Part shown: in pieces, positions 13,432 to 25,476 of the stretch
Position numbering within the stretch: the first letter of the stretch is position 1
Layout: each line of letters opens with the position of its first letter
Assembly (NCBI RefSeq): GCF_030384885.1
Contig: NZ_CP128613.1
Length of the DNA stretch: 64,000 nt
DNA from: Escherichia coli
Lineage (GTDB): Bacteria; Pseudomonadota; Gammaproteobacteria; Enterobacterales; Enterobacteriaceae
Direction: 5' to 3' (one strand)
Translations under genes and position numbers: made by a program
Notes under the pieces: model-generated
Databases searched by the model: none
What the model was told of the DNA's origin: nothing
What the model saw: the letters and a program-made list of their open reading frames with translations, nothing else

Positions 13432-15018
13432 TTATTGCCCGCGCGTTAACCCCCGCGCGGGTAATTGCTCCATCCATTGCATAAACACCTGCGGCGGCAT
13501 CGCCTTCGCAAAGAACCATCCCTGGCAATAACGCACGCCGCGTTTGCGCAGCCAGTTAACCTGATCCTCAGTTTCTACCCCTTCTGCAATCGTTTTCAGC
13601 CCCAGGCTGTGCGCCAGCTCGATGATGTGTTCCGCAATCAAATGACTGGTTTTATGGGTGGTCAGCGTCTCAACAAACGATTTATCGATTTTCAAAATAT
13701 CAACATTCAATGATTTAAGGTTATGCAAGTTAGAGTAGCCAATACCAAAATCATCAATTGCCACTTCGTAACCGGCCTGGCGGAAAGCCAGAATAATTGG
13801 TGTCATTTTGTCGACATCAAGAAATGCATGTTCAGTCACTTCAAATTTAATTTGCTGTGGACGCACCGCGTATTGCTCTGTTTTCTGATTGGTTCGCGCT
13901 ATCAACCGTGACGTATGAAAATCGGAGGCCGACAGGTTAATAGAAACATAGCGATCGGCATGTGTTGCCAGGTACGCGCCCAGATCGCGGAAGACATTAT
14001 CAATAACATAATCAGTTACCTGTCCGATCATTCCCTCCTTTTCTGCCAGCGGAATAAACTCTGCCGGATTCATTACTTGCCCCTGCTCACCAGGCCAACG
14101 TAACAATGCTTCAGCGCCGATACATTTTTCTGTTTTGATATCGATTATTGGCTGGTAATAAAGGCAAAGTTGATGTTTTTCGAGGGCGCGTTGCAATTTG
14201 CGTTTGGGAGACAAATAGTTTTGTCGAATACGTAGCCAGAGTAATAACAGAACAAGACTCCCCAAAATGCCGGCGGGTAACGCAAAAATAAGATGATTAT
14301 AAAAATGCGCTATAAGACGTTGATATGAAGTCGCAACAATGGCTGCAATTGGGCGTTTTGTCGAATAAACTGTCGCATATAAATAGCCATTTCTTTGTAC
14401 GGTTAAATCATTCAAATGAATCAGCGGAGAAAACGTTGCTGCCGAGGCCTCGTTGCTTAACGAGAAAAAGGTTTTCGTTACCGTATCATACACACCCCAT
14501 TGCAATGTCGGATCATCAGACATCACTTCACTCCAGAATAGAGGGTTGATGACCGCCACATAATTTCCCCGCTGCATATAGGTCATTTTATAGCCAGAGA
14601 AAAAAGGCGTATCGCGGTAATAATAGATAGAAACGTTAGGTTCACGCTTATAATCGGCCGGTGCAATCGTATAACCGTTTACAGGCGCTATCAGCGATGA
14701 GCATAAAAAATGGTTATCACGGGCATAGATCAATTCATTAATATAAAGATAGCCACGAATAATATTCAACATTCGCTTTTGATGGGCCGGAGTGCAAACT
14801 TGCCCCTGATAGCGTTCTGCTGCATCGCTCACTAAATCTGCCTGGCGAATGACCAGCTCGGATTTATCCAGCGCCAGCTGAGCAAAAGTTTGGAGCTGAC
14901 TATTCACTTCTGATTTTGCCCAAAGGAAGGCAATCCATAGCGACAGAATGATGGGAAAGAGAACTAAAAAGATAATGCCCGGCAACGCCAGTAATTGGTG
15001 TCGTGCATGATGACTCAT
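13432..15018 (-). CDS. pdeC: c-di-GMP phosphodiesterase (CSS-motif periplasmic domain plus EAL domain)
   Basis: Track ORF 13432..15027 begins at a TTG; first ATG at 15018 gives 528 aa; two TM segments; EAL-type motifs ([14 protein letters not shown]); K-12 yjcC position. Confidence 0.9.
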
Positions 15019-21414: not shown

Positions 21415-22608
21415 TTACATCACCGCAGCAAACGCCTTTGCCACACGTTGTACATTTGCCGTATTTAACCCGGCGACACACATGCGACCGCTGGCGATGA
21501 GATAGACACCAAATTCTTCACGTAGTCGGTCAACCTGAGCGGCACTTAAACCGGTATAACTGAACATACCGCGCTGATTAAGCAGATAATCGAAATTGCG
21601 TTCTGGCATTTCTGTGCTCAATACCTTCACCAGTTCCTGACGCATCGCCAGAATGCGAGTACGCATCTCTTCGACTTCCGCCAGCCAGCTGGCTTTCAAT
21701 GCCTCGTCATTCAGCACCGCAGCCACCACCTGCGCACCAAAATTCGGCGGGCTGGAGTAGTTGCGGCGAACTGTTGCTTTCAATTGCCCCAGTACGCGCC
21801 CTGCGGCTTCGGCATCTTCACACAGCACAGAAAGTCCGCCGACGCGCTCGCCGTAAAGGGAGAAAATTTTCGAGAACGAATTGCTCACCAGAGCAGGTAA
21901 TCCCGCGCTGGCAATGGCGCGAATGGCGTAGGCATCTTCTTCCATACCGGCACCAAATCCTTGATAGGCAATATCAAGAAATGGGATAAGCTCGCGGGCT
22001 TTGAGAATTTCAATCACCGCATCCCACTGGTCATTGGTGAGATCGGCACCGGTTGGGTTGTGGCAGCATGGATGCAGCAACACAATACTGCGGGCAGGTA
22101 ATGTTTCCAGCGTCGCTAACAGGTCATTAAAACGCACGCCGTTGGTTGCTTTGTCGTACCAGGGGTAAGTACTCACTTCGAAACCAGCCCCGGCGAATAT
22201 TGCTACGTGGTTTTCCCAGGTGGGATCGCTGACCCATACGCCTGATTCCGGGAAGTAACGCTTCAGGAAGTCAGCGCCCACTTTCAATGCCCCTGAGCCG
22301 CCAAGGGTTTGAATGGTTGCTACGCGCTGTTGTTGCATTACCGGATGGTCCGCACCAAACAGCAGCGGCGTAATAGCATGGCGATAGCTGTTAAGCCCTT
22401 CCATCGGTAAATAAAGCGAAGCGCCATGAGGCTGCGCATTCAGGCGCACTTCCGCATCCGCCACGGCTTTCAGTTGGGGAATAATTCCGTCTTCGTTGTA
22501 GTACAGACCGATACTTAAATTCACTTTGTCGCTGCGAGGGTCTTCTTTGAAACGCTCCATAAGCGTAAGAATCGGGTCGCCAGCGTAGGCGTCAACTTTT
22601 TGAAACAC
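21415..22608 (-). CDS. tyrB: Aromatic-amino-acid aminotransferase
   Basis: Track ORF 21415..22650; start taken at GTG (22608) giving 397 aa beginning [15 protein letters not shown]; PLP aminotransferase class I motifs ([14 protein letters not shown]). Confidence 0.95.
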
Positions 22609-22689
22609 GCGATGGTTCTCCAGGTTTACGGGCAGGTGGTTAAACCACAATAAACCGGAAGAAGGCGAAGATCGAGTGGATGTTCAAAG

Positions 22690-23694
22690 TCAGTCGGGAA
22701 GTTGATGAAGAATTTGCCCCAGTCGCTCTTGCAGCGAACCCGAAACCGAAAGATAAGGAATGTTCCTGCGCGATAATTCCTGTTCGTACCACGCCTGCTG
22801 CCGCGCGCGAAACGCCTCTCCTTGCCGGGTGCCATCCTGCACAAAGGGAAATTCCGCGCCGCAAAGCACCACCAGAGAGTATTCCCGCTCCGCCAGCTGG
22901 TGAAGTTCCTTCGGGGCATGACCATATTGATCAAGGGTATAGAACAAGGTCGTGAGTGGCGATGTGTCACATATAAGATAGCGATTAGCTTCTGCTTGTT
23001 GTTCCCGACGTACCTGTTCGCGGGCGATATGCAACAAATCGTCTGCGGTTAAAACACCATTTTTCTCTTCCCAATAGTCGCGACCAAATTCAGCGACATA
23101 CGCCGTGTCGAGCACGTCCGCCAGCGCTTTTGAAAGTGTGCTCTTACCGGTTGATTCGCCACCAAGCAGACAGATACGGCGAACGAAACTGCGATAAACG
23201 TCGTGCGCCAGCATGTAACGATAGCGGTGAACGTCGGAACGAATCAGCGTTCCCGAAGGAGATTTATCGCCAAGTGGACGCTGTAATCGAATGTGTTCAA
23301 CAGGTTGGGCAAAACGCTTTGTCAGCACTTTAGCAAAACCGTCACCATAATCTTCTGCGGTAAATACAGCGTGTGGGCGGCAATGTAATACCTGCAGGCA
23401 CAGCGTCGCCACATAATGACGATGGATGTCGGCATCGGCATCATTATGCGGTATGGCAGGTAAGTTATAACGCGCGATCAGTTCGGGAGTCAGTACCAGA
23501 ACCGTCGCTCGCGGGAAGCTCACTTGCAGCCACGTCAGGCGCTTTTCAGGTTCACAGTCAGGCATTTCCGGCACGGAATAACTGATGATGAACAGTTCTT
23601 CACATTGTGCCAGCGCGGTATTGATCAACCGTTCATGACCACAATGCAAAGGCGCGAATTTGCCAACCACCAGTCCCGTTACGAAAGGCTTCAT
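22690..23694 (-). CDS. NadR-like bifunctional NMN adenylyltransferase / ribosylnicotinamide kinase lacking the N-terminal HTH domain
   Basis: 334 aa from ATG at 23694 (ATGA overlap with upstream gene stop); nucleotidyltransferase motif GKFAPLHCGHERLI (HxGH); Walker A GGESTGKST followed by EFGRDYWE as in the NadR RNK domain. Confidence 0.8.
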   Translation of the reverse strand: MKPFVTGLVVGKFAPLHCGHERLINTALAQCEELFIISYSVPEMPDCEPEKRLTWLQVSFPRATVLVLTPELIARYNLPAIPHNDADADIHRHYVATLCLQVLHCRPHAVFTAEDYGDGFAKVLTKRFAQPVEHIRLQRPLGDKSPSGTLIRSDVHRYRYMLAHDVYRSFVRRICLLGGESTGKSTLSKALADVLDTAYVAEFGRDYWEEKNGVLTADDLLHIAREQVRREQQAEANRYLICDTSPLTTLFYTLDQYGHAPKELHQLAEREYSLVVLCGAEFPFVQDGTRQGEAFRARQQAWYEQELSRRNIPYLSVSGSLQERLGQILHQLPD

Positions 23695-24248
23695 GATGCC
23701 CGCAGCTCCTTGCGCCACTGATACAAACCATGCCAGGCGTTAATCCAGAACAGGAAATATAAACCGGCGGTCAAGTTTAAACCACGCGTCATATACAGTG
23801 GCACCGCCAGGGTATTCACTGCTAACCAGACGTACCAGTTTTCGATACGTCTTCCCATCAACATGAATTGTGCCAGAACGCTGAAGGTCAAAATCAACGA
23901 ATCCAGCCAGGGGGCCCAGGCATTGGTAAAGGTGTGGAGCAAAAAGCCGTAGCCACCTGCCACGACGACGGCACAGAGCAACAAGAGGAAAAAGTGACTG
24001 GCTTGCGTCCGGCGCACCGGCAAGACATCGCCACCCTGACCTTTCAGCCAGTGGATCCAACCGATGATGCTGGTTGCGATGAAGAATAACTGGAGCGTGA
24101 CATCGGCATAGAGTTGCACGGACCAAAAAACCCAGCCATACAGCATGCTACCAATTATGCCGATCCACCACGTATGCACATTGTTTCTGGCGGCCAGCCA
24201 GACGGAAACCGCGTATGCCAGACACGCGGCGATTTCTGAATAAGACAT
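23691..24248 (-). CDS. PnuC-like nicotinamide riboside (nucleoside) transporter
   Basis: 185-aa multi-TM ORF; PnuC-type motifs (QLYADVTLQLFF...GWIHW; ENWYVWLAVN); strong SD GGGAGGG 5 nt upstream; start lies 22 bp downstream of the alr stop. Confidence 0.75.
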   Translation of the reverse strand: MSYSEIAACLAYAVSVWLAARNNVHTWWIGIIGSMLYGWVFWSVQLYADVTLQLFFIATSIIGWIHWLKGQGGDVLPVRRTQASHFFLLLLCAVVVAGGYGFLLHTFTNAWAPWLDSLILTFSVLAQFMLMGRRIENWYVWLAVNTLAVPLYMTRGLNLTAGLYFLFWINAWHGLYQWRKELRAS

Positions 24249-24270
24249 TGTCCCTCCCTGGAGACGGGTA

Positions 24271-25350
24271 TTAATCCACGTATTTCATCGCGACCCTTGA
24301 AGTCAGGCGCGTGATAAGTTCGTAAGCGCTCACTTTCGTCATTTCAGCGATACGTTCTACGGGCAAACCTTCGCCCCATAAAATGACCGGGTCCCCGGCT
24401 TTATCCTGCGCCTGTGGACCTAAGTCGACGCAGATCATATCCATCGCGACTCGCCCGACAATCGGCACTTCGCGACCGTTCACCAGCACTGGCGTACCGG
24501 ACGGCGCGGCGCGCGGATAACCATCGCCATAACCCATAGCGACTACGCCAAGACGGGTATTACGTTCGCTTACCCAGGTTCCACCATAACCGACAGGCTC
24601 TCCGGCTTTATGCTCACGCACAGCAATCAGGCTGGAGGTCAATGACATTACCGGCTGACAGCCAAAATCGGCACCGGTGGAGCGATCTTCCAGCGGCGAG
24701 ACACCGTAAAGAATGATGCCCGGGCGCACCCAGTCAAAATGTGACTGTGGCCACAGCAGAATGCCCCCCGACGCGGCAATGGAACGTTGACCAGGTTTGC
24801 CTTCACAAAAGGTATTAAAGATATCGAGTTGTTTCTCGGTTGCACCGCATTTTGGCTCATCCGCGCGCGCAAAATGGCTGACAATATTCACCGGCTGACG
24901 AACGTTTTTGCACTGAGTCAGGCGATGATAAAACGTCTCAGCCTGTTCCGGCCTTACGCCCAGACGGTGCATACCGGTATCGAGTTTCATCCAGACGGTA
25001 ACCGGCTCGTCCAGGCTGGCCTCTTCCAGCGCAGCAAGCTGTTCTTCGTTATGCACGGCGGTATGAAAATGTTGCGCAGAAATCGTCGGTAGATCTCTGG
25101 CATCAAAAAAGCCTTCGAGTAACAGTACAGGTTTGGTGATTCCCCCCGCACGCAGTCGCAGAGCTTCTTCGAGACGGGCTACGCCAAAGGCGTCAGCATC
25201 GGGGAGCGTTCGCGCGGTCTCAAGAAGACCGTGACCATAAGCGTTCGCTTTCACCACCGCAACCATTTTACTGGCAGGTGCCAGTTCACGAAGACGTTGC
25301 AGGTTGTGTCGCAGAGCGCGGCGGTTAATCACAACAGTTGCCGCTTGCAT
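24271..25350 (-). CDS. alr: Alanine racemase, biosynthetic
   Basis: 359-aa ORF; PLP-binding [10 protein letters not shown] motif near the N-terminus. Confidence 0.96.
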
Positions 25351-25476
25351 TTGTGTTCCTTTTTTTCAGGTTCTGCCCACCCGTGCAAAACCTCGCTAAA
25401 CAGATAGGACCGGAGTATGCTATTCCACATCCAGGGATGGGTTTATAAACGGCAAGATGATATCGGATTTTCAGCC

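Follow-up and report, generated by a model that had tools for sequence, protein, structure and literature searches.

Metabolic trapping by a Pnu transporter acting together with a kinase is established (PMC7221760, PMC5749112), and operons joining pnuC to a nadR gene whose product has no helix-turn-helix (HTH) region at its N-terminus are known as the 'salvage III' route (PMC2330246). Here we describe a pair of genes of these two families, termed pnuC2 and nadR2, that lies on the minus strand in the gap between alr and tyrB in a 64,000-nucleotide stretch of Escherichia coli DNA (assembly GCF_030384885.1, contig NZ_CP128613.1; hereafter the window). We propose, with moderate confidence, that pnuC2-nadR2 forms a constitutive module, co-transcribed with alr, for the uptake of nicotinamide riboside (NR) and its conversion to nicotinamide adenine dinucleotide (NAD); the substrate, both enzymatic activities, the co-transcription and the freedom from NAD control are predicted from family membership, motifs and gene context.

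PnuC2 matched the whole of the PF04973 model (positions 1–175 of 175; E = 7e-49) and passed the cut-off of the PnuC equivalog model TIGR01528 (77.8 bits; cut-off 42.45), in agreement with the PnuC family assignment made in an earlier note on this DNA. It failed the cut-off of the enterobacterial PnuC model NF011926 (63.7 bits; cut-off 335) and shares 26% identity with K-12 PnuC, of which, judged by sequence, it is a paralogue and not an orthologue. Among solved structures it matched PnuC from N. mucosa (4qtn; E = 1e-8), to which it aligns over residues 51–231. The transporter had been described in the earlier note as truncated. However, the Pfam and TIGRFAM models are both covered in full, and the protein contains seven hydrophobic stretches (Kyte-Doolittle analysis). 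As the conserved Pnu core consists of seven helices and an extra N-terminal helix, such as that of K-12 PnuC, is a non-conserved addition seen in only a few members (PMC5749112), PnuC2 is not truncated. In Pnu transporters, ligand binding involves a WxxW(x)3D/N motif in transmembrane helix 6 (PMC5749112); PnuC2 carries this motif in its Asn form (W138-Y-V-W141-L-A-V-N145), like the NR-binding N. mucosa PnuC. When PnuC2 is aligned to K-12 PnuC, its residues Y47, W64, W67, Y164 and W178 are invariant, and a putative gate role can be assigned to them by position only.

NadR2 matched TIGR01526 (nadR_NMN_Atrans) over almost the entire model (positions 3–322 of 325; E = 3e-43, 148.2 bits), and its kinase half matched PF13521 (AAA_28; aa 173–324, E = 3e-33). 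Its solved relatives identified by sequence (9x6f, 8x7f, 1lw7 and 6gye) are all NadR-type. An AlphaFold2 model, built from an alignment of 64 subfamily sequences, reached a pLDDT of 93.3 and a pTM of 0.85, with the N-terminal domain at high confidence, and when this model was compared to the Protein Data Bank (PDB) with Foldseek, ranks 1 to 8 were NadR structures throughout (best 8x7f, TM-score 0.77). Profile matches, PDB sequence matches and fold matches therefore agree with the assignment of NadR2 in the earlier note as a NadR-type protein with a domain resembling nicotinamide mononucleotide (NMN) adenylyltransferase (NMNAT), a domain resembling ribosylnicotinamide kinase (RNK) and no HTH. 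The N-terminal HTH is indeed missing, the protein beginning six residues ahead of the GKF motif; the earlier note had taken this state for a peculiarity, which it is not, since it is only the enterobacterial regulator NadR that possesses this HTH (PMC2330246).

The catalytic residues of both NadR2 domains are strongly conserved. K12, H17, G19, H20 and R152 are invariant in all 64 members of the NadR2 subfamily, and K12, H20 and R152 are the counterparts of the Salmonella NadR residues K72, H80 and R212, by which ATP and NAD are bound (PMC12421817). The SxTxxR motif reads SGTLIR (aa 147–152); S147 is invariant in alignments of 14 and 15 sequences and nearly so among the 64 subfamily members. 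In the kinase half, the Walker A motif GGESTGKS (aa 178–185), D243 (the Walker B Asp) and R290 (the lid Arg) are invariant in the subfamily alignments. The motifs singled out in the earlier note were recovered as described, namely GKFAPLHCGHERLI with HCGH at aa 17–20, and GGESTGKST at aa 178–186, followed by EFGRDYWE. When the window was compared with E. coli Nissle 1917, the ratio of nonsynonymous to synonymous divergence (dN/dS) was 0.05 for pnuC2 and 0.15 for nadR2; the pair is under purifying selection. Protein databases also hold clusters of shortened NadR2 sequences of 214–289 aa that are 88–91% identical (P0022, P0028, P0055 and P0057), one of them from E. coli DEC2E. Frameshifts, or start codons called at other positions, may account for these in some lineages.

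The arrangement of the two genes points to expression as a unit with alr. The spacer between alr and pnuC2 measures 12–22 bp across six genera, and a promoter scan detected no promoter-like site in it. The promoter and terminator scan was no richer in matches than shuffled controls, and the gap holds a single terminator-like match, whose 5-bp stem covers the Shine-Dalgarno sequence and is followed by a tail poor in T. A scan of positions 22000–27000 against Rfam at E ≤ 1 gave no match, and hence neither a NAD+ riboswitch nor a pnuC motif, and no NadR operator (TGTTTA-N6-TAAACA, up to 3 mismatches) was found within positions 21593–26429. Given that no promoter-like site, convincing terminator, Rfam element or NadR operator was seen, it is likely that the pair is co-transcribed with alr, as suggested in the earlier note, and that its two genes are translationally coupled. 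The overlap supporting such coupling recurs in every orthologous locus examined, and the same 4-bp overlap is found in the Enterobacter, Kosakonia, Chania, Atlantibacter and Scandinavium loci. As NadR2 lacks a DNA-binding domain and no NadR operator is nearby, expression of the pair is probably constitutive. Over the whole window, matches resembling the NadR operator number 42, compared to 26 ± 4.7 in 100 shuffles, none of which reached as high a count; none of the 42 lies near the locus, and the excess is probably an effect of composition.

On the other side of the pair, the earlier note had argued that the tyrB promoter must overlap nadR2. However, 78 of the 81 bases of the nadR2-tyrB spacer (positions 22686–22609) are common to K-12, and blocks conserved across genera (CTCGAyCT, GGTTTATTGT and GGAG) all lie inside the spacer. 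There is therefore no need for the tyrB core promoter to extend into nadR2, and positions 22686–22609 presumably represent the tyrB promoter region.

The 1,559-bp pair is present in 868 of 5,426 complete E. coli genomes (16%), always in a single copy and essentially always on the chromosome. The named carriers (CFT073, uropathogenic E. coli [UPEC] 536, Nissle 1917, NU14, PMV-1 and O25b:H4-ST131 strains) are all extraintestinal pathogenic E. coli (ExPEC) or commensals. Two classes of alleles can be distinguished: 82 genomes carry an allele at least 95% identical to that of the window, among them UPEC 536, and 785 carry one that is 90–95% identical. Canonical pnuC is found in 5,425 and canonical nadR in 5,424 of the 5,426 genomes, so that pnuC2-nadR2 constitutes a second set and no replacement.

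In genomes without the pair, including K-12 derivatives and O157:H7, alr and tyrB adjoin. The alr-tyrB gap of the K-12 derivative MC4100 is 252 bp long and contains neither gene, which bears out the expectation in the earlier note that K-12 has no such pair at this position. Homology of MC4100 to the window ends one base past the alr stop codon (position 24270) and restarts at 22686; 1,583 bp of the window are matched in position by 173 unrelated bp in MC4100 (L002:1733-1905), which include a REP-like palindrome, GCCGGATGCGGCGTGAATGCCTTATCCGGCC. A remnant of the pair within this 173-bp spacer was sought and dismissed, as only chance 9–13-mers match. The query flanks span the same 691 bp in every sampled genome without the pair, suggesting a single replacement event.

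The earlier note had regarded the pair as an accessory insertion. While the pair is missing from K-12, as that view holds, several observations speak against an insertion. The order dnaB-alr-pnuC2-nadR2-tyrB is also found in Enterobacter hormaechei, Kosakonia, Atlantibacter hermannii and Scandinavium. A genome scan with one genome per species, which extended the set of individually examined loci, added Enterobacter cloacae and other Enterobacter, five Kosakonia, two Superficieibacter species and one Escherichia sp. as carriers at the alr-tyrB site. Synonymous divergence (dS) between the window and Nissle is 0.29 for pnuC2 and 0.33 for nadR2, within the range spanned by the neighbours of the pair (dnaB 0.26, alr 0.50, tyrB 0.16), and the GC content of the pair is 52–53%, compared to 50.5% for the window. 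At the boundaries of the pair we found no flanking direct or inverted repeats and no integrase, mobility or tRNA genes. Given the synteny in six genera, the flank-like dS, the host-like GC content and the absence of repeats, ancestral presence followed by loss fits better, that is, an old Enterobacteriaceae resident of the alr-tyrB site that was lost in K-12 and most E. coli. Spread of the pair via homologous recombination through the conserved flanks is possible.

Beyond the enterobacteria, the NadR2 subfamily occurs in a wider range of gene contexts, which we counted in its 80 best loci. In 52 of these, PnuC2 is encoded immediately upstream of NadR2. The pair stands alone in 37 loci (Enterobacteriaceae, Andreprevotia, the Pseudomonas mendocina group and others). 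In 15 loci it is preceded by further genes, here called c2, c5 and c3, in the order c2-[radical SAM]-c5-c3-pnuC2-nadR2 (Undibacterium, Microbulbifer, Thalassobium, Verrucomicrobia, KSB1, Peristeroidobacter and Dyella), and 26 loci, from Oxalobacteraceae, have c2-c5-c3-nadR2 without pnuC2; the last two are cut by a contig end or have no adjacent pnuC2. On long contigs, the full operon is co-directional and encodes a MoxR-type AAA_3 ATPase, a ~320-aa unknown protein, c2, an optional radical SAM protein, c5, c3, PnuC2 and NadR2, with pnuC2 being optional ahead of the terminal nadR2. Such larger operons (L084:40-5065, L094:4615-13226 and L096:4429-12652; also L052, L067, L079-L081, L086, L091 and L092) reside in Proteobacteria, Verrucomicrobia, KSB1 and one genome labelled Flavobacterium.

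The c2 protein (~600 aa) is sometimes labelled 'VWA domain-containing', has no Pfam match and has at least 1,770 homologues, with 55–60% identity across phyla. The c3 protein is a PaaK-like AMP-binding adenylating ligase. For c5 (~190 aa), no match was found in Pfam, NCBIfam, PDB sequences or PDB folds; its model is all-helical and confident (pLDDT 90), and its C-terminus reads ...AEESADKW(T/S)RE-stop in 15 of 15 aligned copies (L084:1482-2066 and 14 orthologues). It is a matter of speculation that this tail, encoded beside an adenylating ligase, serves as a C-terminal scaffold or substrate. A search of the window detected none of c2, c5, c3 or the radical SAM gene, and no NAD-related annotation was present among the neighbouring genes of the Pseudomonas and Janthinobacterium loci. 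A full-text literature search found no description of the larger operon or of the E. coli pnuC2-nadR2 locus.

Based on these results, we suggest the following mode of action. As the translationally coupled distal part of the alr transcription unit, pnuC2-nadR2 would be expressed along with alr, probably constitutively and not under NAD repression. PnuC2 would serve as a facilitated-diffusion channel admitting a pyridine riboside, most likely NR. The C-terminal P-loop kinase of NadR2 would trap the riboside by converting NR to NMN, and the N-terminal HxGH nucleotidyltransferase would adenylylate NMN to yield NAD. Several observations weigh against this proposal. NadR2 is ~30% identical to E. 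coli NadR and scores below the curated cut-offs of the NadR models (TIGR01526, 148.2 bits versus 341; NF005988, 96.1 bits versus 201), which is why its name at NCBI is merely 'AAA family ATPase'. The Y-P-(N/H)-G-W loop shared by the NadRs of E. coli, H. influenzae, L. lactis and 9x6f is replaced in NadR2 by I-P-H-N-D-A-D-A-D-I-H-R-H-Y, which contains no Trp, a pattern that is subfamily-wide and in which R92 is invariant; in addition, the subfamily has a private invariant motif, E114-D-Y-G-D-G-F120. Due to the replaced loop and the private motif, the acceptor pocket of NadR2 may differ from that of known NadRs. Furthermore, 41 of the 80 subfamily loci close a larger, uncharacterised operon, 26 of them without a PnuC. 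A NadR homologue of M. tuberculosis, NadRh, shows no detectable RNK or NMNAT activity (PMC3944813), and our full-text literature search turned up no experiments on proteins of the NadR2 subfamily.

Some of these points would be accommodated if the same trapping architecture handled another riboside, an alternative that we consider unlikely. Candidates are nicotinic acid riboside, which would be converted to nicotinic acid mononucleotide (NaMN) and on to nicotinic acid adenine dinucleotide (NaAD), or a riboside precursor of another cofactor; in many bacteria the product would then feed a MoxR-VWA-(radical SAM)-c5-PaaK-like pathway, of which enterics would keep only the scavenging module. Consistent with such a role, the replacement of P-x-G-W, the invariant R92 and the EDYGDGF motif all fall within the nucleotidyltransferase domain, the scores of NadR2 lie below the NadR cut-offs, and the 41 loci are linked to c2-c5-c3, with the full operon on long contigs of three groups. 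That the subfamily often sits in a larger operon outside the enterics raises the chance of this alternative. However, PnuC2 scores above the PnuC equivalog cut-off and shares the Asn form of WxxW(x)3D/N with NR-binding PnuC, the 37 loci with the pair alone include all enterobacterial ones, and the window is devoid of the c2, c5, c3 and radical SAM genes. Moreover, the location of the P-(N/H)-G-W loop on the nicotinamide side of the NadR pocket is presumed.

The example of NadRh (PMC3944813) raises the question of whether NadR2 is only partly active, as a kinase with a sensor or regulator N-terminal domain, or has neither activity. The Pfam match of the N-terminal domain to the cytidylyltransferase-like family is weak (aa 8–38, E = 0.067), and the clusters of 214–289-aa variants in protein databases are sizeable. 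Nevertheless, we regard such a lack of activity as quite improbable, given that the catalytic Lys, HxGH and SxTxxR are invariant or nearly so in 64 diverse members, that the N-terminal domain is modelled confidently, that dN/dS of nadR2 is 0.15 and that the PnuC partner is kept, unlike in mycobacteria. We likewise considered whether the pair might be a recently acquired islet that replenishes NAD under NAD-depleting stress, in phage defence or counter-defence, like phage pnuC-nadR operons. Both proteins have matches in PHROG families (1880 and 3462), NadR-PnuC operons of phages have been put forward as routes for NAD reconstitution (bioRxiv 10.1101/2024.02.11.579819), and the pair is missing from most E. 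coli. This idea appears highly improbable: a phage origin was rejected, as no phage homologue exceeds 31% identity; PADLOC gave only a P-loop match (E = 0.003), and the neighbours are housekeeping genes; and the shared site in six genera, the flank-like dS, the host-like GC content and the lack of flanking repeats, integrase or tRNA genes point to a long-standing resident. We thus retain NR salvage to NAD as the probable function of pnuC2-nadR2.

Operons that join pnuC to an HTH-less nadR are already known as a type of system, and the two genes are annotated in hundreds of genomes. What appears to be unreported is a second set at an ancestral site in B2-type E. coli, with regulation that is probably unlike that of the canonical set and with its own acceptor-site signature and operon links. 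If the pair indeed salvages NR, B2-type E. coli, including major uropathogens and Nissle 1917, would own a second route from NR to NAD that is probably not NAD-repressed and is missing from K-12. This would bear on NAD-auxotrophy and niacin-requirement phenotypes in ExPEC and on efforts to engineer the metabolism of Nissle so that it produces NMN or NR, and strains with pnuC or nadR knocked out in non-K-12 backgrounds would still possess a back-up system. If, as seems less likely, another riboside is handled, the subfamily would point to a widely conserved cofactor-like pathway. With either substrate, a pair that looks accessory would in fact be ancestral and lost by the reference strain.

The features of the locus are compiled in Table 1; the coordinates, the co-orientation, the ATGA overlap and both spacer lengths given in the earlier note were all found in the sequence as stated. 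In RefSeq, the two proteins are named 'nicotinamide riboside transporter PnuC' (WP_000122238.1) and 'AAA family ATPase' (WP_024218679.1). The region is 100% identical to that of E. coli 2013C-4282 (NZ_CP027579), where the RefSeq order is alr, pnuC, 'AAA family ATPase', tyrB.

Table 1. Positions of pnuC2, nadR2 and associated elements in the alr-tyrB gap of the window
Feature	Position	Strand	Description
pnuC2	23691..24248	-	185-aa Pnu-family transporter with a seven-transmembrane core; open reading frame call and PF04973/TIGR01528 matches
nadR2	22690..23694	-	334-aa HTH-less NadR-family protein; ATG at 23694, stop codon 22692-22690
NadR2 nucleotidyltransferase domain	~aa 1-165 = 23694-23200	-	HCGH at 23646-23635
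NadR2 P-loop kinase domain	~aa 166-334 = 23199-22693	-	Walker A GESTGKS at 23160-23140
PnuC2 motif W138-x-x-W141-x3-N145	encoded at 23837-23814	-	
pnuC2/nadR2 ATGA overlap	23691..23694	-	nadR2 ATG 23694-23692, pnuC2 TGA 23693-23691
Shine-Dalgarno sequence AAGGAG of nadR2	23711-23706, inside pnuC2	-	11 nt 5' of the nadR2 start
alr-pnuC2 spacer	24249..24270, 22 bp	-	alr stop codon ends at 24271; GGAGGG at 24257-24252
nadR2-tyrB spacer	22609..22689, 81 bp	-	RefSeq tyrB GTG start at 22608
Segment present here and missing from K-12	22687..24269, 1,583 bp	.	alignment to the K-12 derivative MC4100

The surroundings of the pair also differ between strains. The dnaB-alr-tyrB segment (21415-27100) is unusually divergent from Nissle, with dS values of 0.16–0.50 and 93.6% protein identity for Alr. 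The dnaB-alr gap, which measures 52 bp in K-12, holds two plus-strand open reading frames (25417-26037 and 26083-26610) in the window. The first encodes a 206-aa protein with a weak lipoprotein-family match, whose homologues are named 'YqhG/Tai3 family', and its region occurs in 118 of 5,426 genomes; the complete 1.35 kb, with the second frame, which encodes an acidic protein of 175 aa, is present in only two of the 5,426. Nissle contains blocks (L009:1-3000 and 9268-14101) that are absent from the window strain, comprising a 2-oxoglutarate dehydrogenase-like cluster between tyrB and aphA as well as a LacI-family regulator gene and CoA-transferase genes upstream of dnaB.

The known systems closest to the pair include the PnuC (nadA-pnuC) and trifunctional NadR of E. 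coli and Salmonella. Both sets draw on the same two families and follow the same logic of a transporter plus a trap, and NadR2 has the same two-domain fold (8x7f, TM-score 0.77) and the same ATP/NAD-contacting Lys, His and Arg. In contrast, identity is ~26% for PnuC and ~30% for NadR; the pair lacks the HTH and the extra N-terminal transmembrane helix; pnuC2 and nadR2 are adjacent and overlapping while the canonical genes are unlinked; and the pair has no NadR operator nearby, has P-x-G-W replaced and scores under the NF011926 and NF005988 cut-offs. The nearest functional analogy is provided by the HTH-less NadR and PnuC of H. influenzae and L. lactis (1lw7 and 6gye; 'salvage III', PMC2330246), in which NadR is a bifunctional NMNAT/RNK enzyme. 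These NadRs are 20–24% identical to NadR2, and they keep P-N-G-W and lack EDYGDGF. The best solved sequence match is a 357-aa 'nicotinamide-nucleotide adenylyltransferase' (PDB 9x6f/9x6h; E = 3e-28 over NadR2 aa 5–292), which has the same two-domain layout but differs in having T-R-G-H where NadR2 has H-x-G-H and in keeping Y-P-N-G-W; 9x6f was deposited as an NMN adenylyltransferase despite T-R-G-H in place of the usual H-x-G-H. Phage pnuC-nadR operons (PHROG 1880 and 3462) comprise the same pair in the same order, at no more than 31% identity and on phage genomes, whereas the pair described here occupies a conserved chromosomal slot. Finally, NadRh of M. tuberculosis (Rv0212c) is also a divergent HTH-less NadR, without a PnuC partner and without detectable activity (PMC3944813); NadR2 is unlike it in having both a coupled PnuC and intact catalytic motifs.

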